DNA from: Candidatus Zixiibacteriota bacterium
GTDB lineage: Bacteria > Zixibacteria > MSB-5A5 > GN15 > FEB-12
NCBI GenBank assembly: GCA_041742355.1
Contig: JBGSIV010000121.1
Location: forward strand, 1 to 60,779
DNA: 60,779 nt
Direction of reading: 5' to 3'
The notes beneath the pieces are model-generated. The model made no database searches. It saw nothing but the letters and a program-made list of their open reading frames with translations, and was not told where the DNA came from. Numbering within the stretch: the first letter of the stretch is position 1; each line of letters starts with the position of its first letter. A program made the position numbers and the translations under genes. Positions 4,577 through 60,352 of this stretch are shown one piece after another.

Positions 4577-5575
4577 GTCATGCTTCGACTCCGCTCAGCA
4601 TGACGGCGCATAGATCCCCAGGTCTTCCTTTACCCGTCACCCTGAGCGGAGTCGAAGGGTGACGAGAGAATGGGTTCGTCTGCACACTTTCTGTTTCTCA
4701 TTTTCTCTTTGTCTTTGTCAGGCTCCAAGGAGCCTGACCTACTTCCAAGGATGGGTTCGTTTGCACGGTTTCGGCAGATGTGGACATCTGCCGTTCACCA
4801 ACTGGGCGTGTTTGCGATCGCTCGGGGGTAACGCAAGGCCACCCCCTACGCGGGTGCGGAGCCACATTCCACGCGGACGCAAGGGGTATCGCCGTTCGCG
4901 GACGCATCGACGAATTGGGTTCGTTTACGCATGTTTCCCTGTGCGTTCATGGCTCTCTGCAGTCATTCTGTACTTGCCTCCCAGTCGGGTTTCTCGGGGT
5001 CTTCGACCCCTCGGAACCCGACCTACTCCCCAAGAACTCAGACCTATGCCTCAGGAACACCGATCTACCATTGGGTTCGTTTGCGCAAATTCCCTGTTCC
5101 TGGTTCCCCCGTTGTCAGGCTCCACGGAGCCTGACCGACAAGAAGAGCATTCGTATCGGGCTGCCCACAGCAGAGCTGTGGGTCACCTGTTCATTCTGTC
5201 AGGCCGCAAGCGGCCTGACCTACGTCTTTCTTCCCACGCATTGGGTTCGTTTGGTAATCCCGGCATACGGTAGACCTGAGCGTGACTGGGGCCCGGCCTC
5301 CGCCGGGCTGACAGGAAAGAAGTCGGGGGAACTCGTAGTGGACTCTGGCCGCACATTTGCCCTGCCTCTCCCATTGCCGACACACGGCCTCGCCTGTTGT
5401 CGATACTTCCTCTCCTGTTGCCAATGCGTTGCCTCTCCTTCTGCCGATACGTTGCCTCTCCTGCTGCAGGCGCAACGGCCTCTCCCCTTGTTTCCTTCAC
5501 GCCGCCTCTGAGCCTCCGTACACTCTGTTCTATACTTACCGGGACGTTGGGGCAATCTCCATCAGATCGTCAGTG
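4577..5575. repeat. Non-coding mosaic element, copy L (REP-like hairpins + 13-mer units + tandem array)
   Basis: Palindromes: GTCATGCTTCGACTCCGCTCAGCATGAC (4577-4604), GTCACCCTGAGCGGAGTCGAAGGGTGAC (4636-4663), GTCAGGCTCCAAGGAGCCTGACCTAC (4717-4742), GGCAGATGTGGACATCTGCC (4773-4792), GTCGGGTTTCTCGG..CGGAACCCGACCTAC (4984-5026), GTCAGGCCGCAAGCGGCCTGACCTAC (5198-5223). Five (A)TTGGGTTCGTTT-like units start near 4670, 4751, 4914, 5070 and 5240. The element is a reverse-complement homologue of 59685-60352. Confidence 0.85.
5352..5485. repeat. Head-to-tail array of six 21-24-bp units (iteron-like)
   Basis: Units at 5352-5372, 5373-5394, 5395-5415, 5416-5438, 5439-5461 and 5462-5485. Examples: TGTTGCCAATGCGTTGCCTCTCC and TTCTGCCGATACGTTGCCTCTCC. 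Plus-strand consensus is roughly TGnTGCCGAnACGnTGCCTCTCC. Confidence 0.85.
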
Positions 5576-5722
5576 AAACTGCACAGAAACGATGGAGGAT
5601 TACCGGGTGCGGAGTGATGCCCGCAAGAGGATACGTACTATGAGGATAGCGGTGGCGAGAGGGACCGAAAAGGGCGCGGTTTTGAGGATTTTGCAGCCTC
5701 GGAAATTGGGGCAAAGGTAGCC

Positions 5723-5786
5723 GCGACGATCGAGCAAGGCGACAATCGAGCACGGTGACGATCGAGAAAGGTGGAGGCGACGGAAG
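5723..5786. repeat. Short tandem repeat, about 3.5 x 16 bp
   Basis: GCGACGATCGAGCAAG / GCGACAATCGAGCACG / GTGACGATCGAGAAAG / GTGGAGGCGACGGAAG, directly downstream of the rodA stop. Confidence 0.7.
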
Positions 5787-5795
5787 GGAGGTTCG

Positions 5796-7013
5796 CTAGT
5801 ACTCCTGCCAGTGGTAGTCCGCTTTCACAATCAGCGCCACCAAAGTCCACGACAACACAAGCGATGTTCCACCGTAGCTCAGGAACGGGAGCGGCACGCC
5901 GGTCACCGGCATCAAGCCCAGGGTCATCCCGATATTGACGAGGAACTGGAAGAAGAAGATCGCAATCGCCCCGAAGGACACGTAGGAGAGGAACCGCGAG
6001 CGCGACCGCGCCGCTGTTTTGATCCCCCGGTAGAACATGTAGGCGAACAGGCCGATCGCCAGGAGCGCGCCCCACAGGCCGAACTCCTCCCCGAGTACGC
6101 TGAAGATGAAGTCGGTATGCCGTTCCGGCAGGAAGTCGAGCTTTGTTTGCGATCCACCCAGGAATCCCTTTCCCCACAATCCGCCCGATCCGATGGCTAT
6201 TTTCGATTGGATGATCTGATACCCCGCGCCGCGCGGATCCTGTGACGGGTCGATAAAGGAGATGATCCGCAGTTTCTGGTAGTCCTCAAGCTTGTTCCAG
6301 ATGAAGGGGGTGATACTTCCGAAGGCCAGGTTGGCCACCACCGTCACCACCCCGAAGGCCAGGCCCGGTCGGGCCAGGATCAGCGCTCCCAGGAGCACGG
6401 CGATGTAAATCGACCAGGCGAGCCAGTGGCTGGCCGCGACGAGAGAAATGATCGGCGAGGCGATGAGCGCGAGGTACATGAGCGGCAGCCCCGACCAGAA
6501 CCAGAGCGCCGCCAGCACCACCGGGAACGACAGCGAGGTGCCCAGGTCGGGCTGTTTAAGCACGAGCATCATCGGGACTACGGTCAACATCAGGGACATG
6601 GCGAGGCGGCGTTTCGAAGACGGGGCCAAGCGCGTGTAGGCGAAGAACCGCGCGAGCACGAATATGAGCGCGATCTTGCCGAGGTCGGCCGGGGAGAAGT
6701 TGATCGGGCCGAACGAAAACCACCGGGTCGCCCCCATCCGCGAGGCGCCGAACAGGAGCACCGCCACCAGCAGCACGACCGCGAAGATGTACATCACGTA
6801 CGCCCCGGCGTCGAAGAGCCGGAACGGCAGGTGCAGCACGACGGTCGCCACCACCAGCGCCACCACCAGCCACAGGAGCTGGCGCAGGTAGTAGTCCCGC
6901 GCGTATTCGGAGGTGTCGTGGTGCTGTGCGGCCAGGATCAGGATCACGCCGATGAGCGACAGCGCCAGGACCGCGCCGATGAATTTCCAGTCGAGCAGCC
7001 GGTAGTCGAGCAT
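5796..7013 (-). CDS. rodA: SEDS-family peptidoglycan glycosyltransferase RodA
   Basis: FtsW/RodA/SpoVE hallmarks: polytopic, GSGGLWGKGFLGGSQTKLDFLPERHTDFIFSVLGEEFG, PLPFLSYGGTS. Immediately downstream of PBP2, with a 1-nt overlap. Confidence 0.9.
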   Translation of the reverse strand: MLDYRLLDWKFIGAVLALSLIGVILILAAQHHDTSEYARDYYLRQLLWLVVALVVATVVLHLPFRLFDAGAYVMYIFAVVLLVAVLLFGASRMGATRWFSFGPINFSPADLGKIALIFVLARFFAYTRLAPSSKRRLAMSLMLTVVPMMLVLKQPDLGTSLSFPVVLAALWFWSGLPLMYLALIASPIISLVAASHWLAWSIYIAVLLGALILARPGLAFGVVTVVANLAFGSITPFIWNKLEDYQKLRIISFIDPSQDPRGAGYQIIQSKIAIGSGGLWGKGFLGGSQTKLDFLPERHTDFIFSVLGEEFGLWGALLAIGLFAYMFYRGIKTAARSRSRFLSYVSFGAIAIFFFQFLVNIGMTLGLMPVTGVPLPFLSYGGTSLVLSWTLVALIVKADYHWQEY

Positions 7014-8950
7014 CAGTCGGTCTCCCCCGCCGTGACGGTGGCAGCCGATACCACCGGCGCCGGTTTCTTCTCGGGCGTGCCGGTTGTCCCGGCCTCTTTG
7101 ACGCTGTCGGCAACCACCGGAGTCCGTCCGGCCAAGCTATCCGCTCTGGCCTGCTGCTCGGCGTAGAATGCTTCCGGGTCCAGCTTCTTTTTCATGTAGA
7201 CGTCGATAATCTTCCCCACGGCCGGCGCAGCCACGGTTGAACCGTGACCGGCATTTTCCACGATTGCCACCACGACGATTTCCGGTGTCCACAGCGGCGC
7301 GACGCCGCAGAATAATGAGTGGTCGTTTCCGTGCGGGTTCTGCGCTGTTCCGGTCTTGCCGCCAATCTTGTAGTTCGGCCGGCGGAGGCTCCGGGCAGTC
7401 CCGCCGCCCCCCTGGACCACGAGTTCGACCCCTTCTTTCAGGGTAAACATGGTCGCGTCGCTGAACGGCAGCGCAAAGGCCACCTTGGGCCTGACCACGG
7501 ATTCGTCGCCGTTGGGCGACGTAATTTTCTTCACCATGTGGAGCTGGTGCACAATCCCGTTATTGGCCATGCCGCAGTACAACTGCGCCAGCTGCAGCGG
7601 TGTCGCCAACACTTCCCCCTGCCCGATCGAGTTGTTCAGCACGAGTGCGCGCGTCCAGCCCCGTTTCCCATACCGCTTGTCGTAGTAGGCCTCGGTGGGA
7701 ATCAGTCCCGCGAGTTCCCCCGGGAGGTCGATCCCGGTGGGACGGCTGAAACCGCATTTTACGTAGTAGTCGCTCAGCGCGTCGACGCCCATCTTGAGCC
7801 CGATCTGGTACATGTACACGTCGCACGAGCGCTCGAGCGCGTGGGCCGCAGTAACCGAGCCATGCCCCCCCTTCTCCCAGCACTTGAAGAACCGGTTGCC
7901 GAACTGGTAGCCGCCGATGCAGGATTTCAGCAGGGTCGACGGCGTGACGTCGCCCCGTTCGAGCGCCGCGCCGACGGTCACGACTTTCGCCGTCGAACCG
8001 GGCGGGTACAACCCGGCCAGCGGGCGGTTCAGCAGCGGGTGCAGGGTGTCGGCCGTGATAGCCGCCCACAACGACTCGGGGATCATTCCCGAGAACACGT
8101 TGGCGTCGAAACTCGGGTACGACGCCATCGCCAGCACTTCCCCGTTGCGCGGATCCACGGCGACAATCGCGCCGCAGTGGAGCGAATCGAGCACCTCGCC
8201 GCATGCCCGCTGCAGATCGAGATCGATTGTGAGGGTCAGGTCGGTCCCGGGGATCGCGTTCTTGCGCGCTTTTCCGGTATACTCTCCGAGGTGCTGGCCG
8301 GTGGCCGATACTTCTATGTATTTCGTTCCCTCGAATCCCCGCAGCAGGGCGTCGTACTGCTTCTCGATGCCCTTCTTGCCGATCAACCGGCCCATGCGGT
8401 ATTCGCCGCCGCCGCTCTTCTCCAGTTCCTCGCGCGACACTTCCCCGACATAGCCGGTGAAGGCTTCCGCGCCGATTCCAACCGGGTACTGCCGGACCTG
8501 GTCGACCTGCCAGCTCACGCCCGGGAAGCGCTGGGCCTGTTCCTCGATGACAGCGATCGACTCAAAGGCCACATCGCGCGCCACCGCCGACGGCTGAAAC
8601 CGGCTGATCATGTTTTTCCTGATTGTCTTGCGGATCTGCAGTGTATCCTGGCCGAGCAGCTGGGCGAGGTTGGCCAGTGTCACGCCCGGCACTTCCTCGG
8701 CCGGGACGATCGAGACGGTGTAGGACGGACGGTTGTCGATAATGCGCCGTCCCTCGCGGTCGAACACCACGCCGCGCCGGGGAATGATTGGATCCACGCG
8801 GAGGCGGTTGCTCTCGGAGCGTTCGGCCAGTTCTTTGTATTGGAAGACCTGGAGATTGAGAAGGCCGACCACCAGAAAAATAACAGCCGCCGCGACAATC
8901 GCCAGGCCGAGTTTTTCTCGTGCTTCAACCGACAGGTGTGAACGCGTCAT
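7013..8950 (-). CDS. mrdA: Penicillin-binding protein 2 (elongasome transpeptidase)
   Basis: N-terminal TM anchor. Transpeptidase motifs STAK (SxxK), SCD (SxN/D-type) and KTGT. Lies between mreD and rodA. Low-complexity C-terminal tail. Confidence 0.9.
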   Translation of the reverse strand: MTRSHLSVEAREKLGLAIVAAAVIFLVVGLLNLQVFQYKELAERSESNRLRVDPIIPRRGVVFDREGRRIIDNRPSYTVSIVPAEEVPGVTLANLAQLLGQDTLQIRKTIRKNMISRFQPSAVARDVAFESIAVIEEQAQRFPGVSWQVDQVRQYPVGIGAEAFTGYVGEVSREELEKSGGGEYRMGRLIGKKGIEKQYDALLRGFEGTKYIEVSATGQHLGEYTGKARKNAIPGTDLTLTIDLDLQRACGEVLDSLHCGAIVAVDPRNGEVLAMASYPSFDANVFSGMIPESLWAAITADTLHPLLNRPLAGLYPPGSTAKVVTVGAALERGDVTPSTLLKSCIGGYQFGNRFFKCWEKGGHGSVTAAHALERSCDVYMYQIGLKMGVDALSDYYVKCGFSRPTGIDLPGELAGLIPTEAYYDKRYGKRGWTRALVLNNSIGQGEVLATPLQLAQLYCGMANNGIVHQLHMVKKITSPNGDESVVRPKVAFALPFSDATMFTLKEGVELVVQGGGGTARSLRRPNYKIGGKTGTAQNPHGNDHSLFCGVAPLWTPEIVVVAIVENAGHGSTVAAPAVGKIIDVYMKKKLDPEAFYAEQQARADSLAGRTPVVADSVKEAGTTGTPEKKPAPVVSAATVTAGETD

Positions 8951-8957
8951 AGCTGTG

Positions 8958-9443
8958 TCAGAACATCGCTTTTATCTTTTGTATCGTCACCCGGCCCTCT
9001 TTGAACATGAAGAAAATCCACGCGATCACAACGGTGTAGAGAGTGCCGGGAAGGAGCAGACGATACAGGTGGTAGCCGAAACCGTCAAGCCCTTCAATCA
9101 TCGCTGTCACAACGTTATACACCAGGGTTCCGACGAAGACAATGAGCATTTTGGAGGTGAGGGACTCGACATTCAGGCGCTCCCGGATATGAAAGGCCAG
9201 CCCCGCCACCATCGCCGTCACGAGCCCGTACCACCCTGTCAGGTCGGGGCGCGACGCCGCCACCACCAAGCCGACCAGGAATCCGAACCACACCGCCGCC
9301 CTTTCCGACTTATACAGGGCCACTCCCAGCACCAGGAGAATCGGGACGTTGATCGTCACCCCGTAGATGGAGGTGAGATCCCGGAACACCACTTCGTGGA
9401 AGGCGACCAGGAGCAGGTAGATGGCGTAGGGTATCAGGTTCAT
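8958..9443 (-). CDS. mreD: Rod shape-determining protein MreD
   Basis: 161-aa polytopic membrane protein. Its start overlaps the mreC stop by 4 nt. The call rests mainly on position between mreC and mrdA. Confidence 0.65.
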   Translation of the reverse strand: MNLIPYAIYLLLVAFHEVVFRDLTSIYGVTINVPILLVLGVALYKSERAAVWFGFLVGLVVAASRPDLTGWYGLVTAMVAGLAFHIRERLNVESLTSKMLIVFVGTLVYNVVTAMIEGLDGFGYHLYRLLLPGTLYTVVIAWIFFMFKEGRVTIQKIKAMF

Positions 9444-10234
9444 CGGAACTCCTCCACCCGGAGGAGGAACAATTCCTCGATGCGGTGGAAGTTCACGGCC
9501 GGGTCCACGAGAATCTGTGAGAAGGCCGCGCTTTCGCCACGTTTGACCTCGCTCACCACGCCGAGGGGAAGTCCCGGCGGGTAGACTCCGCCGAGTCCCG
9601 AGGATACAATCGTATCCCCAATAACGATATCGCCGTACACGGGAAAGTTGTCGAGGATCATTCCCCGTCCCACCACATACCGGAGGATTCCCATCTCACG
9701 GCTGCGGCCCACCCGCCCGGCGACCCGGTTGGCCGGATCGGTCAGCAGTTGCACAGTCGCAAACGCCGGTGTCGTGGAACTTACCCGCCCGATCAAGCCC
9801 CATTCGTTGACGACCGGCTGGTTGACAAACACCCCTTCGCCGGAACCCCGGTCGATGATGGCCGTGGTGGGGACCATGTATCCGGATACCGCAACCACTT
9901 CGGCGGCCAGGAGGCGATATCCGCTCGGCGGCTCGAATCCGAGCGCCGACCGGAGCCGTTCGTTCTCTTTCATCGCCTCGTCGAAAAAACTAAGCTGCAG
10001 GGAGGCTTCCATGAGCTCTTCCCGCAGCTTCTGATTGGCTTCCGCCTGGGAGCGCAGGAGTTCGACGGCGGTGCGGAGCTTGAAGAAGGGATAGTACAGC
10101 CCGTTGAGGACGATCGGCCCGACCAGTTGATCAACCGCGGCCGGCGCCACGATCAGCAGGGTCGACAGCACGATAATGACACCGTACTGCACGTTGCGCC
10201 CATGCCTGGCGACCAGCGTTGAAATCCATTTCAT
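9440..10234 (-). CDS. mreC: Rod shape-determining protein MreC
   Basis: N-terminal anchor, coiled-coil segment (LRSQAEANQKLREELMEASLQL), then a beta-rich C-terminal domain (GDTIVSSGLGGVYPPGLPLG) typical of MreC. Synteny supports the call. Confidence 0.8.
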   Translation of the reverse strand: MKWISTLVARHGRNVQYGVIIVLSTLLIVAPAAVDQLVGPIVLNGLYYPFFKLRTAVELLRSQAEANQKLREELMEASLQLSFFDEAMKENERLRSALGFEPPSGYRLLAAEVVAVSGYMVPTTAIIDRGSGEGVFVNQPVVNEWGLIGRVSSTTPAFATVQLLTDPANRVAGRVGRSREMGILRYVVGRGMILDNFPVYGDIVIGDTIVSSGLGGVYPPGLPLGVVSEVKRGESAAFSQILVDPAVNFHRIEELFLLRVEEFR

Positions 10235-10264
10235 ACCGGTTGTCGATCGGACCGAATGTGGCTA

Positions 10265-10723
10265 CTACTCTACGTTGTCCATGAGCGCGAGGACGTCGCC
10301 CGGCGACGATGCCTCGAGGAGCTTCTGACGGTTCTTCTCCGATTTCATCAGGAACGACAGCCGCGCCATCACGTTCAGGTGCGCGCCGATCGCATCCTCC
10401 GGTGCGGCGATCAGGAAGAACAGGTTGACCGGGCGGTGATCCATGGCGTCGAACGGTACGCCCTTGCCGCTGCGTCCGAAGGCGATCACGATTCCCTTGA
10501 CCGATTTTGTTTTCGCATGCGGAAACGCCACCCCGTACCCCACGCCGGTCGTCACCAGGTTTTCCCGCTCGCGAACGTCGGTCAGCAACTGGTCGCGGTC
10601 CTTGACCATGTTGGAAGTCGCCACGAGATCCACCAGTTCTTCGATCACGTCATCCTTCGCGTCCGACTTGAGGTTGAACTTGACCAGCGTCTCGTCACAG
10701 AACTTCGACAGTTTCATTGTCAT
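10265..10723 (-). CDS. ptsN: PTS EIIA(Ntr)-type regulatory protein
   Basis: PTS EIIA type-2 domain with the phosphorylatable-His context GVGYGVAFPHAKT. 152 aa. Confidence 0.8.
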   Translation of the reverse strand: MTMKLSKFCDETLVKFNLKSDAKDDVIEELVDLVATSNMVKDRDQLLTDVRERENLVTTGVGYGVAFPHAKTKSVKGIVIAFGRSGKGVPFDAMDHRPVNLFFLIAAPEDAIGAHLNVMARLSFLMKSEKNRQKLLEASSPGDVLALMDNVE

Positions 10724-10732
10724 AACCCTTGC

Positions 10733-10900
10733 CTACAGTTTCTGAGCCTCATCTACCAGGAGTACCGGTATGTTGTCGCGCACCGGGTACCATACTTTGC
10801 ACCGGTCGCATATCAGTCGGTCGTTGTTTTCATCCCAGCTCAGCGGACCTCGGCATTTCGGGCACGCCAGCTTTTCGAGCAGTTTCTCCGGGAACGCCAT
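10733..10900 (-). CDS. Trm112/YcaR-family small zinc-ribbon protein (55 aa, absent from the ORF track)
   Basis: My own translation: MAFPEKLLEKLACPKCRGPLSWDENNDRLICDRCKVWYPVRDNIPVLLVDEAQKL. TAAGGAG lies 7 nt upstream of the ATG and overlaps the accA stop. The CPxC...CxxC..YP..dgIP.LL pattern is the Trm112 signature. Confidence 0.7.
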   Translation of the reverse strand: MAFPEKLLEKLACPKCRGPLSWDENNDRLICDRCKVWYPVRDNIPVLLVDEAQKL

Positions 10901-10910
10901 CGCACACTCC

Positions 10911-11873: not shown

Positions 11874-12025
11874 AGTTCGTATCCCGTTGCTCAGGTATCA
11901 CTTCCCGAAGCCGTCCGACAGCCGGAAACCGGCCCGATCGGACTCAATCGTATAAGATAAAACTTCAACCCCACAAAACAACAGCAAAATGGAATGGCTC
12001 TGACCCCGACAGCCCGCGCACGGAA

Positions 12026-12892: not shown

Positions 12893-12902
12893 GACCCTGT
12901 TT

Positions 12903-13631: not shown

Positions 13632-13644
13632 TCCGGGACACCTC

Positions 13645-28357: not shown

Positions 28358-29069
28358 CCCACAGCTTGCTGTGGGATCGGTGAGAATGTCGCTTGTGGCC
28401 CACCATTTATGGTGGGAGTGGGTCGGGTTCCGAGGAGCGTAAGCTCCGAGAAACCCGACTGGTGACAGTAACGAGCCGTCGTGTAGAAGTCCCCGGGTTC
28501 CTGCCGTTGGTTCACATCAGGAACTCGATCCCTGTCACTCGATATCACCGTCGAGTCGGGTTTCTCGCCGCTGCGCGGCTCGGAACCCGACCTACGAGGA
28601 GAGATTGCTTCGCTGCGCTCGCAATGACGGTATCCGAGCTTTTGGTTTGGATCAATGTCAGGACCATAAAGGTCCTGACCTACAGAAGACAGGAGGTTGG
28701 GCCGATTATAGCCTGACAGGTGAGAATTGGGCGTGAATACGTCAGGCTCCAAGGAGCCTGACCTACAAACCCCTTCTTCCGGTGTTTCATTGTCGGGTTA
28801 CTCGCCGCTGCACGGCTCGGAACCCGACCTACGAGGAGAGATTGCTTCGCTGCGCTCGCAATGACAGCTGCTATGCGTTGGTGTTGAGGCAATGTCAGGA
28901 CCATAAAGGTCCTGACCTACAGAAGACAGGAGGTTGGACCGACTGTGACCTGACAGGTGAAGATTAAGCGTGAATACGTCAGGCTCCAAGGAGCCTGACC
29001 TACGAGTTCCTTCTTCCGGCGTTTCATTGTCGGGTTTCTCGCCGCTGCGCGGCTCGGAACCCGACCTAC
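28358..29069. repeat. Dense cluster of REP-like hairpins (BIME-like)
   Basis: CCCACAGCTTGCTGTGGG (28358-28375) and GCCCACCATTTATGGTGGG. Three copies of GTCGGGTT.CTCGCCGCTGC.CGGCTCGGAACCCGACCTAC. Two copies each of GAGATTGCTTCGCTGCGCTCGCAATGAC, GTCAGGACCATAAAGGTCCTGACCTAC and GTCAGGCTCCAAGGAGCCTGACCTAC. Confidence 0.9.
28555..29069. repeat. Tandem duplication, 237-bp period, about 2.2 copies, each unit holding four different hairpins
   Basis: Unit starts (GTCGGGTT) at 28555, 28792 and 29029, which gives a 237-bp spacing twice. Units are near-identical where aligned by eye. Confidence 0.85.
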
Positions 29070-50442: not shown

Positions 50443-50530
50443 GTCGGGTTTCTCCGCTTCGCGCCTGCGGCGCGCTTCGGAACCCGACCTACGACATCTT
50501 GTCAAGCACCGAGACCGGTGCTTGACCTAC
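50443..50530. repeat. REP-like hairpins with CTAC tails
   Basis: GTCGGGTTTCTCCGCTTCGCGCCTGCGGCGCGCTTCGGAACCCGACCTAC and GTCAAGCACCGAGACCGGTGCTTGACCTAC. Confidence 0.85.
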
Positions 50531-50630
50531 CGGCCTCTCTGTCCTCCTGGGCTTGTGCTTGTTCACGGGCACGGTCGGACTGCGCGTCGCCTCTCCAGAT
50601 TGAAGACCCAGTGTGCTTCTCTAGGCACAT

Positions 50631-51926: not shown

Positions 51927-52031
51927 GTCACCTCACCTCTCATTGCAGACAGCCACTGCTTGTCTAATCGCAGTCCCCTTAATGAAAGTCACGTGCCTCT
52001 CGTTCCTGTAACGAACCGACACCAAGTCCCC

Positions 52032-52781: not shown

Positions 52782-52936
52782 GGGGGGACGCGACTTCGGC
52801 CGGCAAGGTCATCCGGTTATCCGCCGGCTGTCGGGAAAGCAACAGCCCGGCCGGTTCTCGCTTGGATTCAACCCGATTCGCCGTATATTGCGTGCAGAGC
52901 CGACAGCACATCAGTATTACAGCATGCAGGGAATAC

Positions 52937-53353
52937 ATGTCAGGACGCAAAAAGAAGTTCCCGTGCGGTCACTCCGGTCGCGGCCAATACTGCCACCGGT
53001 GCCGCGAAGAAGAACTTGAGCGGCAGGTCGAGACCGAGAACCGCCTCCGTCGCGGGCAGGCGAAGTTGGAATGGGAAACGAAGCTTGCCGATTCGCCGGT
53101 CAGCCTCACCGACATCCCCCGGCACGTTGCGGAGAAGGCGCTGGAGGTCATCGCCGATCTCCGCAAACCGCCTGCACAGCGCCGCTTCACCGGGAGGCGG
53201 CTGACCACCATAGGACAACGGGACATCGTCCGTTTCGAAATCGGCTGGTCGTACCGGCTGATCTGCCGTGAGAACGGCGACGGCCTCCAATTCCTGGAGG
53301 TGATTTCGCACGAAACCTATAACACGCGCCTCGCCTCAGGCGGCTGGCGGTAG
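52937..53353 (+). CDS. Hypothetical protein: N-terminal Cys/His knuckle + coiled coil fused to a RelE/ParE-like toxin-fold C-terminus
   Basis: From the ATG at 52937: MSGRKKKFPCGHSGRGQYCHRCREEELERQ... The C-terminus IVRFEIGWSYRLICRENGDGLQFLEVISHETYN follows the RelE/ParE pattern (R.R.G.YR.iy....d.l.il.v.h...Y). Confidence 0.45.
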   Translation: MSGRKKKFPCGHSGRGQYCHRCREEELERQVETENRLRRGQAKLEWETKLADSPVSLTDIPRHVAEKALEVIADLRKPPAQRRFTGRRLTTIGQRDIVRFEIGWSYRLICRENGDGLQFLEVISHETYNTRLASGGWR

Positions 53354-53433
53354 ACGCGCTTTCGCTCCTCAGAGGCCGAGTGGTTCTCGCCGGCGCAGAC
53401 TGAAGACGAAAGAGGTAATAGCATCTCCCCCTC

Positions 53434-54699
53434 TCACGGATACACCACCGTCACCCCGCGATTGCGCAACGTCCACACCTGAATATCGATCGCTGTCTGC
53501 GACAGCGGATTCCCCTCCAGATACACGACATCACCGGAGTCAATCCCCGGATTGTTCACCAGCGGCATAATATCCGAGATCTGGTTATTGGTCAGTCGCA
53601 ACTCGCGGAGCCCGGTCATCCAGCCCAGCCCGGCTATGGTCGTGATCTGGTTCTGCATCAGGTTAAGCGACTCCACCATGTACAGCGACCGGAGAGAATC
53701 CGCGTTGGTGATATGATTGAACGCCAGTCCCACCCGCTGCGGACGTTTCAAGTGCGCCATGAAACTGATATCCGCGAGATCCATCTCGTCAAATCCGACT
53801 TCGCTGAGAAAATACAGCCCGTAAAGCGGGGAGAAGTCCGTCACATCCGTACGCCACAAAATCAACTGCTGCAGCGAATCGACCGCCGCCAGCGGACTGA
53901 TATCCGTCACCGGATTATCTCCCACCTGTACCTGATGGAGTCGCTTCATGCCCGCCAGCGGGCCAAGATCGCTGATCTGGTTCCCGTTCATGTACAAGTC
54001 CGCAAGTTGCTCCAAATCGGCCAGCGGCGCCAGGCTGACCACGTTGTTTCCCGGAAGATTCAGCATGTGCAGCGAGATGCAGCGATTCAACCCGCTCAGG
54101 TCCGCGATCCCCGCGTGTGGCGCGGACAACTCCGTGATCGTATCGACGTCCGAAGAGAGCAGGTCCCCGTTTGGCTTGCCCAGATGTTCCCGCACGATCC
54201 GTTCGAGAACCGTGTCCGCAAATTCCACCTTCTGCAGCGCCGCGCAATGCGCCGACACACAGTTCGACACGGCGCTCCAGTTGCCGTGGTCATCCTCGGC
54301 CTTGAGCGCGAAATAGTAGTGGCCGTCCGGCTCACAGCCACGCACCACCCAGACCTGGACCTGCCCCTCTCCCAGCGGATCCGGCACCTCGGCAATCTGC
54401 TGTGCGGCTGCGAAATTCTGCGCCGTGAGGCTGTCGGACGAAATGCGCAGGTCATAGGCCACTATCGGCCCGCCGGTGCTGTCGTCGCGACGATCCTGCG
54501 GCGTCTGCCATTGCAGCGTGACTGTCTCGGAGGTTGCTCCCAGAACCACCAGGTTAGTCACCGTCGTTGGCGGCGTGGTGTCGGTTTCCTCGTCATCAAC
54601 ATCGGTGGACTTGGAGCAGGCCGGCCCAAGAAGCGCAATCGCCACCGCCAGAGTGAGCCCGGCGACGGCACGAAGATCCCTGATGAGTTTGTTACCCAT
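53434..54699 (-). CDS. Exported FN3 + leucine-rich-repeat (internalin-like) protein
   Basis: Signal peptide with Cys (LAVAIALLGPAC). An FN3-like segment (PPTTVTNLVVLGATSETVTLQWQTP), then about 10 LRR units of ~22 aa (L..L.L..N.I.D...L..L). Confidence 0.8.
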   Translation of the reverse strand: MGNKLIRDLRAVAGLTLAVAIALLGPACSKSTDVDDEETDTTPPTTVTNLVVLGATSETVTLQWQTPQDRRDDSTGGPIVAYDLRISSDSLTAQNFAAAQQIAEVPDPLGEGQVQVWVVRGCEPDGHYYFALKAEDDHGNWSAVSNCVSAHCAALQKVEFADTVLERIVREHLGKPNGDLLSSDVDTITELSAPHAGIADLSGLNRCISLHMLNLPGNNVVSLAPLADLEQLADLYMNGNQISDLGPLAGMKRLHQVQVGDNPVTDISPLAAVDSLQQLILWRTDVTDFSPLYGLYFLSEVGFDEMDLADISFMAHLKRPQRVGLAFNHITNADSLRSLYMVESLNLMQNQITTIAGLGWMTGLRELRLTNNQISDIMPLVNNPGIDSGDVVYLEGNPLSQTAIDIQVWTLRNRGVTVVYP

Positions 54700-54870
54700 G
54701 TTTCCCTGCCGTATCAGAGGTTGTAGAGCCCCCTATCCATTTAACATAGCATAGCCCCAAACCGTTGTCAACTGCCCACTGCCGTCAACCGCCCGCCTCC
54801 ATGCTCGGCGGCACTCCGCCGAACTTACTCGGTGCTTTCAAACTCGGGCAGGGTTTGCTATACTACCGCA

Positions 54871-55386
54871 ATGGACTTTGTCTCCCACTCCCTCTGGGGC
54901 GGACTCGCGTTCGGGCGCGAAACGAAACGGGCCTTTCTCCTGGCTGCTGTTATCTCAATCACGCCCGACCTTCTCACCGAGGGCCTCTTCGGAGCGCTCT
55001 ATCTGCTCGGCATCGGCGGCATGCCCGGCTGGGAACACGGTCACCCCAACATAACCGACTACCCCGCCTTCGCCCAGACACTCTACAACGCCACCCACAG
55101 CTTTATCCCCTTTGCCGGCATCTTCGGACTGACCTGGCTCCTGTCGCGAAAGCCCGTTTGGATCCTCGCTGCCTGGGGATTACACATCGCCATCGATATC
55201 CCTACCCACTCCCTCGCGCTGTTCCCCACGCCGTTTCTCTGGCCGTTGTCGAGTTTCAAGGTCGACGGCATCGGATGGGACAACCCGGTCGTGATTGCGC
55301 TCAATGTCATCATGCTTCTGACCGCGGGCTGCCTCTGGTACTTCGGTCGTCGCAGCAATAAAGCTCGCGCCGCCGACTGCGAATAG
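54871..55386 (+). CDS. Membrane protein, possibly YdjM/DUF457-type metal-dependent hydrolase
   Basis: From the ATG at 54871: MDFVSHSLWGGLAF.. with 4-5 TM helices and conserved His residues (HSL, HGHP, HIAIDIPTH). Weak family call. Confidence 0.5.
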   Translation: MDFVSHSLWGGLAFGRETKRAFLLAAVISITPDLLTEGLFGALYLLGIGGMPGWEHGHPNITDYPAFAQTLYNATHSFIPFAGIFGLTWLLSRKPVWILAAWGLHIAIDIPTHSLALFPTPFLWPLSSFKVDGIGWDNPVVIALNVIMLLTAGCLWYFGRRSNKARAADCE

Positions 55387-55506
55387 AACTGCCTGCCAAA
55401 ACAAACGGGCAGGCCTTTTCAGCCTGCCCGCTCATCAACACTCTATCTCCGGCGCAATACTGCTGAGTCGCTGAGTACCCCACAGCTTGCTGCGGGATCC
55501 CCGACT

Positions 55507-56559
55507 CTACTTCACCAGCAGCATCTTCTTCGTCGCTTCGTAATCCCCCGCCCGGAATCTATAGAGGTAGACGCCGGTCGACACCGTCCGCCCCGTTTCG
55601 TCCATTCCATCCCACTCGACCTGGTACGTCCCGGCCGCTTTCACTTCATTCACCAGCGTTTGGACCCGCTGTCCGGCGACATTGAACACCTCGATCGTCA
55701 CGGTCGACCGCGAGGGCAGGCCGTACTCGATCGCTGTCGACGGATTGAACGGGTTGGGGAAGTTCTGATGCAGGTCGAACCCGAACGGGAGCGCCGCGCT
55801 TTCGTCGTCGCCAACCCCCATCGGTTCATCCCGCACACAGCGGACCGACCCGGCGTAATCCAGCGCATAGCCGCCCCGCCCGACCGAGGTCAGGTTGCAG
55901 GAGATGTCCCGCGCCCAAGCATACCCCGGAGTGGTTCTCTCCGTCGCCGTCCAGAAGAAAGCCGACATGCCGAATTCTGTGAAAAGCGGTCGGTTATCGA
56001 GGACTCCACCCGGTATCGCCGCAAAGCCGAATTCGTCCGTGGCGCCCTCATTGGGGCAGGCCCAGTGAATGGAGCCGACTTCTTTCAGTCTGGCGCCGAT
56101 CAGGTAACCCCCGCGATTTCCCATGCCGTCGACCACTTCGATCGGCATTCCCAGGAACACTTCCAGCACCTTCCAATCGTCGTCGGTCGACACATGCCAT
56201 CCCTCCGGCGCGATGCCCCGCGGATCGACCGTAGCGTGCCAGTTGTACATCAAGCCGTAAGTTGCCACATTGTTCGTATCCGCTTCAGGGGCGCAGCACT
56301 GGCCGACCGTGACTCCCGTCCAGTTGGCGCTGTCGGGCACGAAATACGGGATCGGGTCGCCGTTGTTGTAGTGACCGACTTTCAGGTTCTCCGCCATCCA
56401 GACCTGCGTGCCGATCACGACTGTCTGGTAGGTGTGGCCGTCGATATCGGTGACTGTGCCGGCGGGTGCGGACGCCGCGATCATCATAATGAGGGCAGCG
56501 GGTAGGGCGATAGTGAGGACAAGGTGCTTCATGGTGTCTCTCCGGGGTTGCGTGGACAT
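55507..56559 (-). CDS. FISUMP-domain protein with T9SS C-terminal sorting domain
   Basis: TDIDGHTYQTVVIGTQVWMAENLKV..YGLMYNWHA..IAPEGWHVSTDDDW..FGFAAIPGG..FWTATE..SVRCVRD is the Fibrobacter succinogenes major paralogous domain pattern. C-terminus NFPNPFNPSTAIEYGLP..VTIEVFNVAGQRV..GVYLYRFRAGDYEATKKMLLVK is a T9SS type A CTD. Confidence 0.8.
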   Translation of the reverse strand: MSTQPRRDTMKHLVLTIALPAALIMMIAASAPAGTVTDIDGHTYQTVVIGTQVWMAENLKVGHYNNGDPIPYFVPDSANWTGVTVGQCCAPEADTNNVATYGLMYNWHATVDPRGIAPEGWHVSTDDDWKVLEVFLGMPIEVVDGMGNRGGYLIGARLKEVGSIHWACPNEGATDEFGFAAIPGGVLDNRPLFTEFGMSAFFWTATERTTPGYAWARDISCNLTSVGRGGYALDYAGSVRCVRDEPMGVGDDESAALPFGFDLHQNFPNPFNPSTAIEYGLPSRSTVTIEVFNVAGQRVQTLVNEVKAAGTYQVEWDGMDETGRTVSTGVYLYRFRAGDYEATKKMLLVK

Positions 56560-56675
56560 TACCGTTGTATAATTGCGGAATAATGTACCGGGTCACCCGT
56601 GTTGAACAACAAGTATTTTGCGGGTATGCGACCCCCGACCCCGCATGCTGGACTCCAAGCCAATGCCTGGGCAGA

Positions 56676-56860
56676 GTCATTGCGAGGAGCGAAGCGACGA
56701 AGCAATCTCTCTTCTTGTAGGGCAGGATCCCCCAGGATCCTGCCATTGACCTGCACCTGACGCTTGGACACTGTCATCCCTGCGAAAGGGCATGTTGAAA
56801 AACCCCGAGCGCGGCTGTTGGCAGTCATTGCGAGGAGCGAAGCGACGAAGCAATCTCTCT
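56676..56860. repeat. Hairpin repeat cluster
   Basis: Two copies of GTCATTGCGAGGAGCGAAGCGACGAAGCAATCTCTC, plus GGCAGGATCCCCCAGGATCCTGCC and GTCATCCCTGCGAAAGGGCATG. Confidence 0.85.
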
Positions 56861-56914
56861 TCGTGCCAGTGTCTTGGCCAGAGGAGATGACCCTCCCCCC
56901 AAAAAGTGGACCGG

Positions 56915-57802
56915 TTATGAAGCGAGGGTCAACTGGTTTTCCTGTCGTTCATAGGTTCGTTCATAGGCGGCCGGAGACACGCCGTCCAGGCTGGTGTGCC
57001 GCCGCCAGTTGTTGTAAAAGGCCTCGATATACTCAAAGAGCTTGGCCCGCGCTTCCGCTTTCGTGGCAAACCGCTCGTGGTAGACCAGCTCCCGTTTCAA
57101 GCTGCCAAAGAATGACTCCATCGGCGCATTGTCCCAGCAGTCTCCCTTCCGGCTCATGCTCCCCACCATCTGCCAGTCCCCGAGCAGCTGCTGGTAGTCC
57201 CCGCAGGCGTACTGCCCCCCCCGATCGCTGTGGTGCACCAGCCCCGGCGGGGGCTGCCTTCGTCCCACCGCCTGCCTGAGGGCAGACTTCGCCAACTCAC
57301 CGTCGATCGTTTCGCTGGTCGCCCAGCCGACGATCTTGCGCGAGTACACATCCAATACTGCCGCCAGGTACAGCCACCCCTCAGTTGTCCACACGTAGGT
57401 GATGTCGCTCAGCCACACCTGATTCGGCTGCCGGGCGGTAAAGTCCCGGTTGACCACATTCGGCGCGACCGCATGCGTATGCTTTGAGTCCGTCGTCACT
57501 TTGAACTTCCTGACCGTCTTGGGCCGTAGCCCTTCCTGCCGCATCAAGCGGGCTATGCGCTTCTCGTTGCAGCGCTCCCCTGAAGCCTGCAAGGCCTGGG
57601 TCATCCGGGGTGACCCGTACGTCCGCCGACTCTGCTCGTGGAGCACCCGCAGCTGCACCACCAGCCGCTCGTTGGCGCGCTCCCGCTCACTCGGTGGCCG
57701 GTCCCGCCACGCGTAGTAGCCGCTGCGGGGCACGTCCAGGACCGCACACAGAGCCCGCACCGGAGATGCCGACGCCTGCTCCCGAATCACCTGGTATCTC
57801 AT
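56915..57802 (-). CDS. IS3-family transposase OrfB (DDE/rve integrase core)
   Basis: 295 aa. QPNQVWLSDITYV (first D), HSDRGGQY (second D), DNAPMESFFGSLKRE (E). In the -1 frame relative to orfA. Confidence 0.9.
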   Translation of the reverse strand: MRYQVIREQASASPVRALCAVLDVPRSGYYAWRDRPPSERERANERLVVQLRVLHEQSRRTYGSPRMTQALQASGERCNEKRIARLMRQEGLRPKTVRKFKVTTDSKHTHAVAPNVVNRDFTARQPNQVWLSDITYVWTTEGWLYLAAVLDVYSRKIVGWATSETIDGELAKSALRQAVGRRQPPPGLVHHSDRGGQYACGDYQQLLGDWQMVGSMSRKGDCWDNAPMESFFGSLKRELVYHERFATKAEARAKLFEYIEAFYNNWRRHTSLDGVSPAAYERTYERQENQLTLAS

Positions 57803-58095
57803 GACTCGCTCCGGCTGAAGTAGGCCAAGGCTTTTTTTAATATGTCCCGCTCCTGCGTCACCCGGGACAGCTCCCGCCGCAAGCGCTTAAGCTCCGCTTC
57901 TGCGGTCTCCCCCGAAGGCTGGGTGTCCAACGCCGGTGTCTGCTTCTGCCGCCACCGCCACAGGACCGACTCGTTGAGTCCCAGATCCCGGGCGACTCCC
58001 GCCACCGTCCGCCCCGGCTGGTACGTCAACCGCACCGCCTCCGCTTTGAACTCGGCGTCATACTTCCGCCGTGATTGCCGCTGTTCTTTGGCCAC
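57799..58095 (-). CDS. IS3-family transposase OrfA (HTH)
   Basis: MAKEQRQSRRKYDAEFKAEAVRL..GRTVAGVARDLGLNESVLWRWR plus a leucine-zipper-like tail. ATGA overlap with orfB. Confidence 0.9.
   Translation of the reverse strand: MAKEQRQSRRKYDAEFKAEAVRLTYQPGRTVAGVARDLGLNESVLWRWRQKQTPALDTQPSGETAEAELKRLRRELSRVTQERDILKKALAYFSRSES
57832..57838 (-). other. Programmed -1 ribosomal frameshift site (A AAA AAA) producing OrfAB
   Basis: orfA reads ..UUA AAA AAA GCC.. in frame 0. After a -1 slip the frame reads KKSLGLLQPERV-MRYQVIRE with no stop, joining the orfB frame. Confidence 0.75.
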
Positions 58096-58163
58096 TGCTA
58101 CACCTCCTGAAGACCAATATAACCTCGCTTCAAAAAGTGTCCACTCAATTGGGGGAGGCTCAA

Positions 58164-58191
58164 GAGATTGCTTCGCTGCGCTCGCAATGAC
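58164..58191. repeat. Hairpin repeat abutting the IS right end
   Basis: GAGATTGCTTCGCTGCGCTCGCAATGAC, the same unit as at 28600-28627 and 28838-28865. Confidence 0.85.
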
Positions 58192-58244
58192 TATTCAAGG
58201 ACCTTTTCAATAGGCCCGAAAGCAGGGATCCAGTCCCTCCCCTC

Positions 58245-58586
58245 TCACCCCCGCTCGAAATGCGGCAACTCATCCGGAATCGGAATCGATATCTCCACAT
58301 ACCCCCGAAACTCCCCGTTATCGAAAAGCGGAATCTGATGAATAATCTTCTTCTGACCGTTCTTGCGAATCGTGTAGTGGTTCGCCTGCTGTGTCCGGAA
58401 CATCTCCGCCAGCCGCGACCGCGACGGCTCCGGGTGGCACGCCAGCACATCGCTGCCGATCAGATCCGCCCCGCCGTCGGCGGCAAACGTCGCGATCGAT
58501 TTCGGATTCATGGCGGTGATTGTTCCCTGCGCGTCGGTGACCGTGATCGCGATCCCCACGTAGTCAGTCCAGTTGTCGTTCGGCAT
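58245..58586 (-). CDS. Stand-alone PAS-domain protein (PAS_10-like, CHP motif)
   Basis: 113 aa. ..GIAITVTDAQGTITAMNPKS..IGSDVLACHPEPSRSRL..IIHQIPLFDNGEFRGYVEISIPI resembles the DUF438-associated PAS fold with a conserved CHP. Assignment from memory. Confidence 0.55.
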   Translation of the reverse strand: MPNDNWTDYVGIAITVTDAQGTITAMNPKSIATFAADGGADLIGSDVLACHPEPSRSRLAEMFRTQQANHYTIRKNGQKKIIHQIPLFDNGEFRGYVEISIPIPDELPHFERG

Positions 58587-58914
58587 TGCCTTGCTCCTGT
58601 CTGAGCCTGTTTTTGCGGGGAATATACGCCGACGGACTGAAGAGGCGCAAAGGTAAATGAAAGTAGGGCGGGAGTCCCCAGGCTTCCGCCACTCGAGAAC
58701 TCCTGGTGCCCCAACGCTTGCGTTGGGGAAAGATTCAGCAATCGGGTTTATCCATCACTGTCGGTACGTCCGATCGCCAAACATACCGGAACTGCCTCCT
58801 GACCATCGTTTGTTGAAACGCCTGGGTTTCCAAACAAGGTATTGAGAGTCTATTCCCACCGCTCATAACAGGCTTCCCCGCTTCCGTTCCGCGTATTTCC
58901 CTTCTCGCGTAGAC

Positions 58915-59391
58915 CTATCCTTCGTACGAGTCAGCATCGAGAATCTGGTCAAGAGACAGAATAGTGAGACCCATCGCGAGATTCATGTATTTTACGATCG
59001 TCGAAACTTCCCAATATCCCGCAGAAACCAACACTATTTGTCCAACGAAGATCGCAGAAAAAGAAATGGCAATAACATTGCGGATCTGATCTTTTTCAAG
59101 GTCCGAGAAGCGCTTGATCGAGGCAACACCAATGACAAGTGGTATGAAGAACGCCACTGTAAGGCACATTTTCCAAACGTTGCTCCAACTCCAGAGATCC
59201 ACAAAATCCAAGGGGAATATGAGACTCCCCTTGGACATACAGTATTCGTTTATGGCAGTGTCTATTGCGACCACAGAGTCAACGCCTATCCAAACCAGGA
59301 AATCAAGAATAATGGAGGCAAAGAATACGATACTACAAATGCCTATCACTGCGGCCCAGATTCCCAATAGAATGGGTACAAGCTTCTTCAT
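58915..59391 (-). CDS. Hypothetical 4-TM membrane protein in an AT-rich patch
   Basis: The ATG at 59391 (MKKLVPILLGIWAAVIG) is preceded by GGAAGGGAG. Four hydrophobic helices and no recognisable motif. One 60-nt line inside it counts 23 G+C. Confidence 0.5.
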   Translation of the reverse strand: MKKLVPILLGIWAAVIGICSIVFFASIILDFLVWIGVDSVVAIDTAINEYCMSKGSLIFPLDFVDLWSWSNVWKMCLTVAFFIPLVIGVASIKRFSDLEKDQIRNVIAISFSAIFVGQIVLVSAGYWEVSTIVKYMNLAMGLTILSLDQILDADSYEG

Positions 59392-59745
59392 GTTACTCCC
59401 TTCCGACATGTTCCCTTAGCTTCTCTAACCAGTGAAGTAGGCTTGCGACATCCCGAGTATGGGCCTCAGGTATTTGGCGCGAATCATCGTCTATAACCCT
59501 CGTCGCCGCCTGCTTCCCTGATCATATATTTGTCCCCTTCTTAATTGAAATGCAAAGTAGTCCGGCAAATCAACCAGCATTTGTGTTGGTTAGAACCTAG
59601 TTCAGCCGCGTAGGTCAGAACCATCGCGGTTCTGATCCCCTCAAGGTCGCGCTTCGCGACCTATCCTCCCCTGCAAAATCGTCAGCAAACTGATGGAGAT
59701 TGCCCCATGGTCCACAGTAAGTATAAGACAGAGTGTACGGCAGCT

Positions 59746-59859
59746 TAGAGACAACGTGTCGGCAATTGGACCGGCAGCGTATCGGCCAAAGGAAAGGCAG
59801 CCTGTCGGCAAGAGGAAAGGCAACATGTTAGCATGAGGAGAGGCAGGGCAAATGTGCGG
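59746..59859. repeat. Head-to-tail array of 23-bp units (iteron-like), counterpart of 5352-5485
   Basis: GGACCGGCAGCGTATCGGCCAAA (59768-59790), GGAAAGGCAGCCTGTCGGCAAGA (59791-59813), GGAAAGGCAACATGTTAGCATGA (59814-59836), GGAGAGGCAGGGCAAATGTGCGG (59837-59859), plus one degenerate unit upstream. Confidence 0.85.
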
Positions 59860-60138
59860 CCAGAGTCACCTACGAGTCACCCCGACTTCTTTGCTGTCAC
59901 CCCGGCTCCCGTCCGTCACCCCGGCTTGTTTTCAGTCACCCCGGCGGAGAGCCTGCCCCGGACTCGATCCGGGGCCGGGGCCCAGTCACGCCCAGGACAT
60001 CGGTATGCTGAGATTAACCAAAACGAACCCAACCGTAGGTCGGTGTTCCGAGGGGCGTTAGCCCCGAGAAACCCGACATGGCGGACAACCCAAATTTGCG
60101 CAAACGAACCCAATTCAGCGACTGCATTCGCGGCAGAT

Positions 60139-60219
60139 GTGGACATCTGCCGCGCACAGAGAGAAGTGGACATCTGCCGCGAACGGAGAGACGTGGACAT
60201 CTGCCACGCACGGATACGT
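60139..60219. repeat. Tandem repeat, 3 x 27 bp
   Basis: GTGGACATCTGCCGCGCACAGAGAGAA / GTGGACATCTGCCGCGAACGGAGAGAC / GTGGACATCTGCCACGCACGGATACGT. The first unit completes the palindrome GGCAGATGTGGACATCTGCC, which is also present at 4773-4792. Confidence 0.9.
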
Positions 60220-60352
60220 GTGACGGATTTCTGCGCAAACGAAGCCAATTTGTCGATGCTGCCCACCCCCTTCCGCAGGGTCTTGCGCGACCCCAAGCAG
60301 AGCGAGGAGGAGCGTGTGACCCTGCGGCACCAAAACGAACCCAATTACCGGA

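Follow-up and report, generated by a model that had tools for sequence, protein, structure and literature searches.

The window analysed here, a 60,779-nucleotide (nt) stretch of contig JBGSIV010000121.1 from a Candidatus Zixiibacteriota bacterium, contains two mosaics, termed L (minus strand, ~5600–4506) and R (plus strand, ~59665–60352), that bracket 54 kb in inverted orientation. L and R are probably paralogues belonging to a Zixibacteria-specific family of mosaic repeats that is multi-copy, non-coding and strictly polar, and they would bracket the 54 kb by chance. The analysis demonstrates that the family is multi-copy and non-coding, keeps its polarity across lineages and lies at gene 3′ ends, and that L is inserted when compared with relatives. 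The family is undescribed; it is analogous to the bacterial interspersed mosaic elements (BIMEs), the Neisseria intergenic mosaic elements (NIMEs) and BOX elements and is a member of none of these.

According to the proposed layout, an element would begin with a near-invariant head, module A, in which a stem-loop with the 3′ arm ATGG(A/T)GATT precedes a TA.(A/G)TATAG box. Species-specific short tandem arrays (the B units, the C core and 20-nt units) would follow. The tail would consist of an A/C-rich 13-nt motif, D, AAAC(G/A)AACCCA.., alternating with GTAG- and CGTC-tagged hairpins of the repetitive extragenic palindrome (REP) type, all running in one direction.

To our knowledge, work on mosaic repeats (REP/BIME, NIME, BOX, and Correia) has been confined almost entirely to cultured Proteobacteria, Neisseria, and pneumococci. 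The elements described here constitute a distinct, strictly polar repeat family in an uncultured candidate phylum. D and the stem of one of the hairpins, REP1, are kept over a 22-point range of guanine–cytosine (GC) content, which points to a conserved recognition partner. The 54-kb bracket would represent no functional unit.

Two copies in the window and their recurrence elsewhere

Reverse-complemented, L aligns to R in eight collinear blastn blocks, as expected of the genuine inverted copies with one module order that the initial annotation had proposed, and the inverted arms are also recovered by a separate repeat search of the window. The blocks are A (L 5565–5498 and R 59690–59758, 83% identity), the tandem units and core or B–C (L 5459–5302 and R 59747–59906, 77.5% over 160 nt), C′/D1, which extends into the first D motif (L 5298–5241 and R 59973–60032, 83%), D2 (22/22 identical), the REP1 hairpin (L 5026–4977 and R 60035–60084), the third D unit (D3), the palindrome (L 4798–4772 and R 60131–60157), and a terminal hairpin of 62 nt (L 4567–4506 and R 60266–60327, 87%). 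The longest exact inverted match, GGAGAGGCAGGGCAAATGTGCGGCCAGAGTC (L 5371–5341 and R 59837–59867), measures 31 nt rather than the 30 nt first reported. Similarly, L was correctly placed but reaches ~4506, past its annotated end at 4660. The short head-to-tail units noted in both copies have a period of 23 nt according to Tandem Repeats Finder, with 4.7 copies in L (5363–5467) and ~3.7 in R (59759–59845). The block motif GGGCCCCAGTCACGC, attributed to both copies, is present in L, while R has GGGGCCCAGTCACGC. The palindrome is indeed shared, with GTCCAC at its center in L and GTGGAC in R.

Several modules are exclusive to the two copies within the window. The 13-nt D motif AAACGAACCCAAT is confined to L and R; AACGAACCCAAT occurs seven times when at most one mismatch is permitted, every time in L or R, against a chance expectation of 0.22, and looser variants bring the D units to five in L and four in R. 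Matches to GTAAGTATANNACAGAGTG with up to three mismatches (0 expected) and to the module A box GTAAGTATA..ACAGAGTG are likewise restricted to L and R.

Open reading frames (ORFs) of 111–243 aa run across both copies. However, the indels between L and R are not multiples of three and the shared core lies in different reading frames. Because of these frame shifts, coding is not conserved and a small-ORF reading is rejected, in agreement with the earlier view that neither copy harbors a believable ORF. Six-frame translations of the A–C regions, joined as a pseudo-protein and searched for gene calls in other copies, gave 0 matches.

The multi-copy nature of the element is apparent from X1, an independent hot-spring metagenome available as Logan contigs, which contains the window organism. 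X1 is probably SRR28170473, with a 2302-nt contig that ends inside module A. The unique flanks in X1 are identical to the window and have a depth of 7–9x, while the summed depth amounts to 174–524x for A, ~330–356x for REP1, ~298x for the terminal hairpin, and ~91x for the D2 unit. For module A of L, the depth is 174 compared with 9.3 for its flank, and for that of R it is up to 524 compared with 6.98. A is found on 23 X1 contigs, at least five of which are long (6.6–8.8x) and have different upstream flanks. Since module depth greatly exceeds flank depth and the many contigs differ in their flanks, the element is multi-copy, that is, a dispersed element and not a one-off duplication. No alternative letter reaches 10% of the depth at any position of A. 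The contigs break at the modules, such that none spans L or R and the B–C stretch is nearly uncovered. Their exact unique flanks, obtained from another run, and their breaks inside modules exclude an assembly artefact. Because short-read contigs end inside module A, the elements are systematically missing from metagenome-assembled genomes (MAGs).

After A, other copies continue with B-like units, of which three distinct sequences are found in X1 and a further run, X2. In contigs of X2 and X4, the end of A gives way to one or two B units, the C core, and GGCTGTCA(C/G)CCCGG units, in that order. One X2 contig is a gap-free version of R 59711–59979 (92% identical), and in one X1 joint A is linked directly to a D unit.

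The genus of the window organism seems to be absent from reference genomes (best RodA match 81%, a Logan contig). Within Zixibacteria, the family spans 39–61% GC, with the window at 60.9%. A JGI metagenome contig from another organism (L001, 59% GC) has a module A that is 46/48 identical to that of L, ~20-nt tandem units, and a D–REP1–D series. Its three ~20-nt tandem units differ from those of the window, and an IS5-like insertion sequence (IS) is inserted before D–REP1–D. This IS5/IS1182-like transposase gene occupies ~116–1547, separating A from the D/REP tail, and its ends are inverted (AGGGCTTGTTGAA / TTCAACAGCCCCT); GGTGGCCCA units lie 3′ of module A on the same contig. The exact module A pattern, GGAGATTGCCCC-N8-13-GTAAGTATA, matches one JGI metagenome contig and none of 185,579 GTDB species genomes. 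In these genomes, a pattern combining the 3′ arm of REP1 with D detects four loci, all of them in Zixibacteria.

The MAG JTS-AC108 (~50% GC) carries three elements of 0.5–0.9 kb. In each, an A homologue comes first, followed by three to five D motifs together with REP1 and further hairpins, with a conserved sub-order. In a 39%-GC MAG, REP1 is followed by D at a contig end. Between 39% and 61% GC, D and the outer stem of REP1 do not change by a single letter, whereas the stretch separating them does drift. A relaxed D pattern run over 131.6 kb of Zixibacterial DNA has 22 matches (1.5 expected), all within elements; these are co-oriented with the REPs of their element, and with A in the six elements that have A on the contig. 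The GTAG REPs inside elements are also co-oriented, in 9/9 cases (window L, window R, L001, L005, L007, and L008). The architecture therefore exceeds a random pile-up of REPs, as initially argued, in that head A, tandem units, and the polarity of the D/REP tail recur elsewhere. A literature search on the D motif returned unrelated primer matches only.

Matches outside these elements were also inspected. One public MAG contig (L006) has at its end, in positions 1–180 directly after a D motif, the Illumina adapter AGATCGGAAGAGCGTCGTGTAGGGAAAGAGTGT and poly-A junk, a stretch that is an assembly contaminant. On viral contigs, the A 16-mer has chance matches only, with no continuation into A, and the C core has 0 matches. 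A double-D pattern detects coding repeats that are in frame in a phage, as well as one Mu-like contig, and is uninformative. The phage repeats (L009 8470–8640 and L010 4630–4780) are five in-frame tandem copies of AAGGGTTCGAAAAACGAACCC, encoding the peptide KGSKNEP, within an ORF located just downstream of a recombination-protein-like gene. Every copy forms an inverted repeat of its own; the array may be an origin iteron array, and its resemblance to D is probably coincidental. The Mu-like viral contig (L011, 51% GC, with MuB-type AAA_22 and Gam) has D-like motifs AAAACGAACCCAATTC and AAAACGAACCCAAACAAACCCATTT at 8700–8800, the first of which starts ~8 nt 3′ of the stop codon of an unannotated 280-aa ORF. 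This hints that D may occur outside the described elements.

Genomic setting and rival explanations

The protein encoded immediately upstream of L, RodA, is at most 81% identical to any sequence found, and its best named relatives belong to candidate division Zixibacteria. The window is ordinary chromosome. It harbors the series GT2-GT2-accA-EIIA-mreC-mreD-mrdA-rodA in the order found in relatives, as well as pyrB/pyrC, glycine-cleavage genes (gcvPH), accB/accC, and a PilT-like ATPase. L lies 3′ of rodA on the same strand; 8 nt separate the end of its tail from the stop codon of a convergent DUF4350-like ORF (3545–4498). R is located between a divergent membrane-protein ORF and a convergent cytidylyltransferase-like (RfaE-type) ORF (60353–60754, continuing upstream), and its tail ends at the stop codon of the latter. 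Among five complete elements, four directly adjoin a convergent gene at its stop codon.

The rodA neighborhoods of five relatives were compared, four as DNA and one as a gene list. Among the relatives with 72–81% RodA identity, rodA is followed in two by EamA (L003, with a 54-nt spacer, and L033, with 100 nt), and in two by other genes (L002 and L034). The EamA of the window (2544–3476) is 64% identical to that of L003. It has the same orientation relative to rodA as in relatives; hence there is no inversion across the L boundary. None of these four DNA neighborhoods contains A, B, C, or D sequence. Because the element is missing from them, L together with ORF 3545–4498 is a lineage-specific insertion.

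In the reading that we favor, a dispersed mosaic family, the elements would spread as DNA via duplicative insertion and gene conversion between copies, and individual copies would lengthen in place through slippage of their short units and insertion of REPs. A conserved trans-acting factor may recognize D and the REP1 stem. Any cellular effect would fall on transcripts that run through an element, with the hairpins as 3′-end barriers and the unpaired, A/C-rich D motifs between them as possible binding sites. Several observations weigh against this reading. The element has yielded neither terminal inverted repeats nor target-site duplications nor a clean empty site, and no transposase, RAYT, or recombinase is linked to the family, the window holding one IS3 only. 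The insertion of L also carried ORF 3545–4498. A is almost invariant across copies and the D/REP1 stem is identical over the whole GC range, and such invariance of A, D, and REP1 looks more like selection for function than selfish spread alone. No RNA-seq runs holding L, R, or a JTS-AC108 element were found, and only ~7 elements are readable end to end, in full or in part. The copy number is probably in the tens per genome, an upper-bounded estimate and no count, as summed contig depth may include related strains or organisms.

It is highly improbable that the inverted pair serves as a substrate for inverting the 54 kb, as the initial annotation had ventured, or forms the ends of a composite mobile segment. 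The copies are inverted, with a 31-bp exact match and ~80% identity over ~160 bp. However, perfect identity is limited to those 31 bp, the rodA-to-EamA order across the L boundary is ancestral, the interior is core chromosome syntenic with relatives, and no invertase or site-specific recombinase is found among the window ORFs, which include one IS3 transposase only. GC skew is uniformly negative over the window, so there is no origin or terminus between L and R. As the genome probably holds tens of copies, it is unremarkable that two of them should lie 54 kb from each other, and such a pair is to be expected by chance. A replication-oriented motif (KOPS- or Chi-like) was considered separately and rejected, since the sign of the GC skew is unchanged between the oppositely oriented copies. 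A DNA-level element is also improbable, be it a cassette-like array that a system of site-specific or single-strand recombination or transposition, analogous to integron attC, Neisseria NIME/dRS3, or REP/RAYT, would assemble by recognizing D and/or the REP stems, or an array of sites for a DNA-binding protein, as the initial annotation also allowed. It would account for D punctuating heterogeneous segments (REPs, palindromes, and a 110-nt JTS-AC108 hairpin module) in one orientation, and the identity of the D/REP1 stem at 39–61% GC suggests sequence-specific recognition. GGCA every 11–12 bp in B corresponds to about one helical turn, L is a lineage-specific insertion, and an IS has inserted in one element (L001). 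Yet D is not palindromic, no attC-like R″/R′ boxes are seen on inspection, and the distance from D to its hairpin varies from 2 to ~50 nt. Unit similarity in JTS-AC108 runs ~45 nt past D, which is thus no clean cassette boundary, and there is no integrase, RAYT, or recombinase gene in the window (no PF01797-type RAYT match among ~45 ORFs). It is similarly doubtful that the elements are dedicated polar non-coding units, tens per genome, with a head for a regulator or recombinase and a modular D/hairpin tail, acting as decoy or scaffold RNA or as an integron-like, ORF-less cassette array. Were this so, the identity of the D/REP1 stem at 39–61% GC would reflect a phylum-wide trans-acting partner.

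Multi-copy regulatory non-coding RNA genes are an unlikely explanation. Module A would be their promoter, perhaps palindrome-regulated, with the primary 5′ end falling 5–10 nt after GTAAGTATAGAAC. The RNA would be an unstructured multivalent decoy that, in the way of CsrB/RsmZ or CrcZ, sequesters ribosomes or an RNA-binding protein through its Shine–Dalgarno (SD)-like B units (GGAGAGG) and through D motifs left single-stranded between protective hairpins. Module A does look promoter-like, as it reads TTGCCC-15/16-TATAGA/TATAAG, its conserved blocks being split by a variable spacer with a 1-nt indel. However, neither L nor R contains a site according to a sigma-70 scan (−35 and −10 hexamers separated by 16–18 nt, with −11 A and −7 T); TATAGA/TATAAG lacks the T at −7 and stands 15–16 nt from the −35-like hexamer. 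In the A homologues of JTS-AC108, TTGAC is 9–11 nt from TATA, or 22 nt from the next hexamer, which is not promoter-like. Canonical promoters, e.g., TTGACA-17-TATGTT, occur elsewhere in the window, and module A as a promoter is unproven. All motifs of an element share one orientation, A far exceeds T in the tails on the element strand whichever replication strand this is, and R has no co-directional upstream gene and would need a promoter of its own, all in keeping with an RNA gene. So is the purine-rich head, which is not stably folded, as would befit a binding platform; compared with shuffled sequence its folding z is −0.47 (L) and +0.73 (R), with no excess stability. Only on the element strand does modelling leave the D cores mostly unpaired, with a predicted unpaired probability of 0.40–0.95 (element mean 0.37–0.49) compared with 0.10–0.58 on the opposite strand, although composition accounts for part of this. 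Both strands of the tails are rich in hairpins, the forward strand having no folding advantage, and a candidate closing helix is not supported by the X2 variant on inspection. At the gathering score, Rfam 15 has 0 matches in the whole window (including to CsrB, RsmX/Y/Z, CrcZ, OLE, GOLLD, HEARO, ROOL, and 6S). Permissive scans yield nothing for L at E ≤ 5, two chance microRNA matches only for R, and nothing relevant for five related loci. B and C are not conserved beyond the lineage of the window, tens of copies are unusual for a regulatory RNA, and the lack of any RNA-seq run with element sequence counts against this explanation too. The long structured RNA gene suggested by the initial annotation is not supported, in view of the Rfam result, of a head that folds like its shuffles, and of the absence of L at the orthologous site of relatives.

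Two further candidates were rejected. A type III antitoxin-like repeat RNA would be expected next to a toxin, and no toxin ORF lies 3′ of the repeats. In the case of a CRISPR array, in which identical 23–50-nt repeats alternate with unique spacers of similar length, the D core is only 11–13 nt long and the ~70–160-nt intervals are repeated hairpins found elsewhere.

Module anatomy

The conserved columns of module A in three lineages are the 3′ stem arm ATGG(A/T)GATT, G(A/C)C, ~10 GC-rich nt, and TA.(A/G)TATAG..A.A.T.T. The partner complementary to the stem arm is always upstream, at a distance that differs per copy. In L (5516–5600, minus strand), module A comprises an upstream arm, ATCCTCCATC (5600–5591), complementary to CTGATGGAGAT; a conserved box, CTGATGGAGATTGCCCC (5565–5549); a variable 11-nt spacer; and a second block, GTAAGTATAGAACAGAGTGTACGG (5539–5516). 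In R it spans 59665–59745 on the plus strand with its core at 59690–59740; the other X1 and X2 copies become similar from 59667–59674 and cease to be so at ~59745.

The B units are purine-rich (GGAGAGGCA..TCGGCA) with GGCA spaced 11–12 nt, and the C core is a variant last unit. L harbors ~5 units of 23 nt, GGAGAGGCAACGTATCGGCAnnA, at 5372–5487 and the 31-nt core at 5341–5371, and R has ~4 units of 23 nt at 59747–59836 and the identical core at 59837–59867. The post-core block of L (5253–5340) consists of CCCCGACTTCTTTCCTGTCAGCCCGG, a short GC hairpin, and CCCAGTCACGCTCAGG..GTATGCCGGGATTACC leading into D1. That of R (59868–60020) contains CCCCGACTTCTTT, 3.6 copies of 20-nt tandem units GTCACCCCGGC.. 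(59875–59945), a GC hairpin, and CCCAGTCACGCCCAGG..GTATGCTGAGATTAACC. Upstream of L, directly 3′ of the rodA stop codon, three 16-nt tandem units, ACCTTGCTCGATCGTC, occupy 5725–5773 on the minus strand; they are absent from R.

The D core, AAAC(G/A)AACCCA, generally has GAAA..TG(C/T)G(C/T) before it and A/T-Y after it. It stands between hairpins in every element, the next hairpin lying 2 to ~50 nt downstream. The tail of L (4506–5252, minus strand) has D motifs at 5252–5240, 5082–5070, 4926–4914, 4762–4750, and 4681–4669; GTAG-tagged REP hairpins at 5223–5198, 5026–4984, and 4742–4717, with a related one at 5141–5114; the palindrome GGCAGATGTCCACATCTGCC at 4793–4774; CGTC-tagged hairpins at 4664–4635 and 4606–4576; and the terminal hairpin at 4567–4506. 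The tail of R (60021–60352, plus strand) has D motifs at 60021–60033, 60102–60114, 60237–60249 (variant AAACGAAGCCAAT), and 60333–60345, together with the REP1 hairpin (60035–60077), three 27-nt units holding GGCAGATGTGGACATCTGCC (60135–60214), and the terminal hairpin (60266–60327). JTS-AC108 has a recurring hairpin-rich module of ~110 nt, CCGCCAACCACC..GGTGGCCCACTCCCGCGCTTCGCGGGGTGGGGTCGGCA, always succeeded by ..GATTATG..TTTGAC..TAAAAATAACAAAACGAACCCA (L005 7225–7350 and 7595–7720; L007 6080–5960 and 4800–4705, minus strand; L008 455–575); this module has no Rfam match.

A REP is defined as an imperfect palindrome of 20–50 bp, one end of which carries GTAG or CGTC as an unpaired tag, and the GTAG and CGTC super-families, which the hairpins of the elements match, are mostly located downstream of genes (PMC3733652). 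The window has at least 18 GTAGGTC(A/G)G...GAC hairpins and several CGTC-tagged ones, including those within L and R, that qualify as REPs, a class membership that covers the hairpins only and excludes modules A, B, C, and D. They are multi-copy and extragenic, with clusters at 28.5–29.1, 30.5–31.85, 42.4, 43.4, and 50.4–50.5 kb in addition to L and R. Outside L and R, REP hairpins are the only element modules to recur in the window, and they do so in both orientations. One such region (28555–29069) is a 237-bp tandem repeat of 2.2 copies (89% identity) with GTAG REPs and a CGTC-type hairpin, GAGATTGCTTCGCTGCGCTCGCAATGAC, and without A or D modules.

Other features of the window include the IS3-family element (56915–58095; HTH_Tnp_1 orfA and rve orfB), which is 1.6 kb upstream of R and adjoins a CGTC-tagged hairpin (58164–58191). 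A 700-aa ORF (181–2283) has a Peptidase_S74 (endosialidase chaperone) domain at its end, an ORF at 52862–53353 combines a ParE-like toxin domain with a zinc-binding DUF7682 domain, and an ORF at 55507–56559 contains a type IX secretion sorting tail in addition to a Fib_succ_major domain.

Comparison with known systems

BIMEs are described as intergenic multi-copy mosaics of GTAG REPs and short linker motifs, found mostly after gene 3′ ends (PMC2817692, PMC3733652). The elements resemble them in being GTAG REP mosaics at gene 3′ ends with a short non-palindromic motif, here D, between the REPs. However, the REPs of BIMEs alternate in orientation, in contrast to the uniform orientation seen here, and BIMEs lack a head module and tandem-unit arrays. 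The elements are also several times longer (0.5–1.1 kb) and share no sequence similarity with BIMEs, D being unrelated to the E. coli linkers.

In NIMEs, repeat units are separated by the 20-bp dRS3, an inverted repeat that is a target of phage and IS integration. The common features are a long intergenic mosaic, a short conserved repeat that punctuates heterogeneous units, and interleaved CGTC-type REPs. Neisseria mosaic regions are mentioned in the literature (PMC3733652). In contrast to dRS3, D is asymmetric and A/C-rich; NIMEs are not known to have a fixed polarity or a head module, and no dRS3-like ATTCCC-N8-GGGAAT was seen in L or R by sequence inspection.

In Streptococcus pneumoniae, BOX elements (boxA-boxB(n)-boxC) are non-coding and consist of modules in a set order; the number of internal tandem modules varies, and there are many copies per genome, located near gene ends. 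The elements share the ordered non-coding modules, the variable number of internal tandem units, the multi-copy state, and the proximity to gene ends. BOX elements, however, are 100–300 nt long, fold into one stable structure, and are not known to contain REP hairpins or a punctuating motif like D. Their phylum is unrelated, and they have no sequence in common with the elements.

CsrB/RsmZ, with GGA motifs, and CrcZ, with A-rich motifs, likewise present repeated single-stranded motifs between hairpins on one strand, and the SD-like GGAGAGG of the B units adds to the likeness with CsrB/RsmZ. However, the elements match none of these in Rfam, their motifs are not in hairpin loops, they have no demonstrated promoter, terminator, or transcript, and they exist in tens of copies as opposed to the one to three genes typical of such small RNAs.

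Integron cassette arrays and clusters of attC sites lacking integron-integrases (CALINs) offer the parallel of a polar array after a “platform”, in which each segment has a hairpin-forming site in one orientation. They differ in that the segments of the elements contain no ORFs, attC R″/R′ boxes, or integrase, and in that the hairpins of the elements are REPs that are also found alone elsewhere in the genome.

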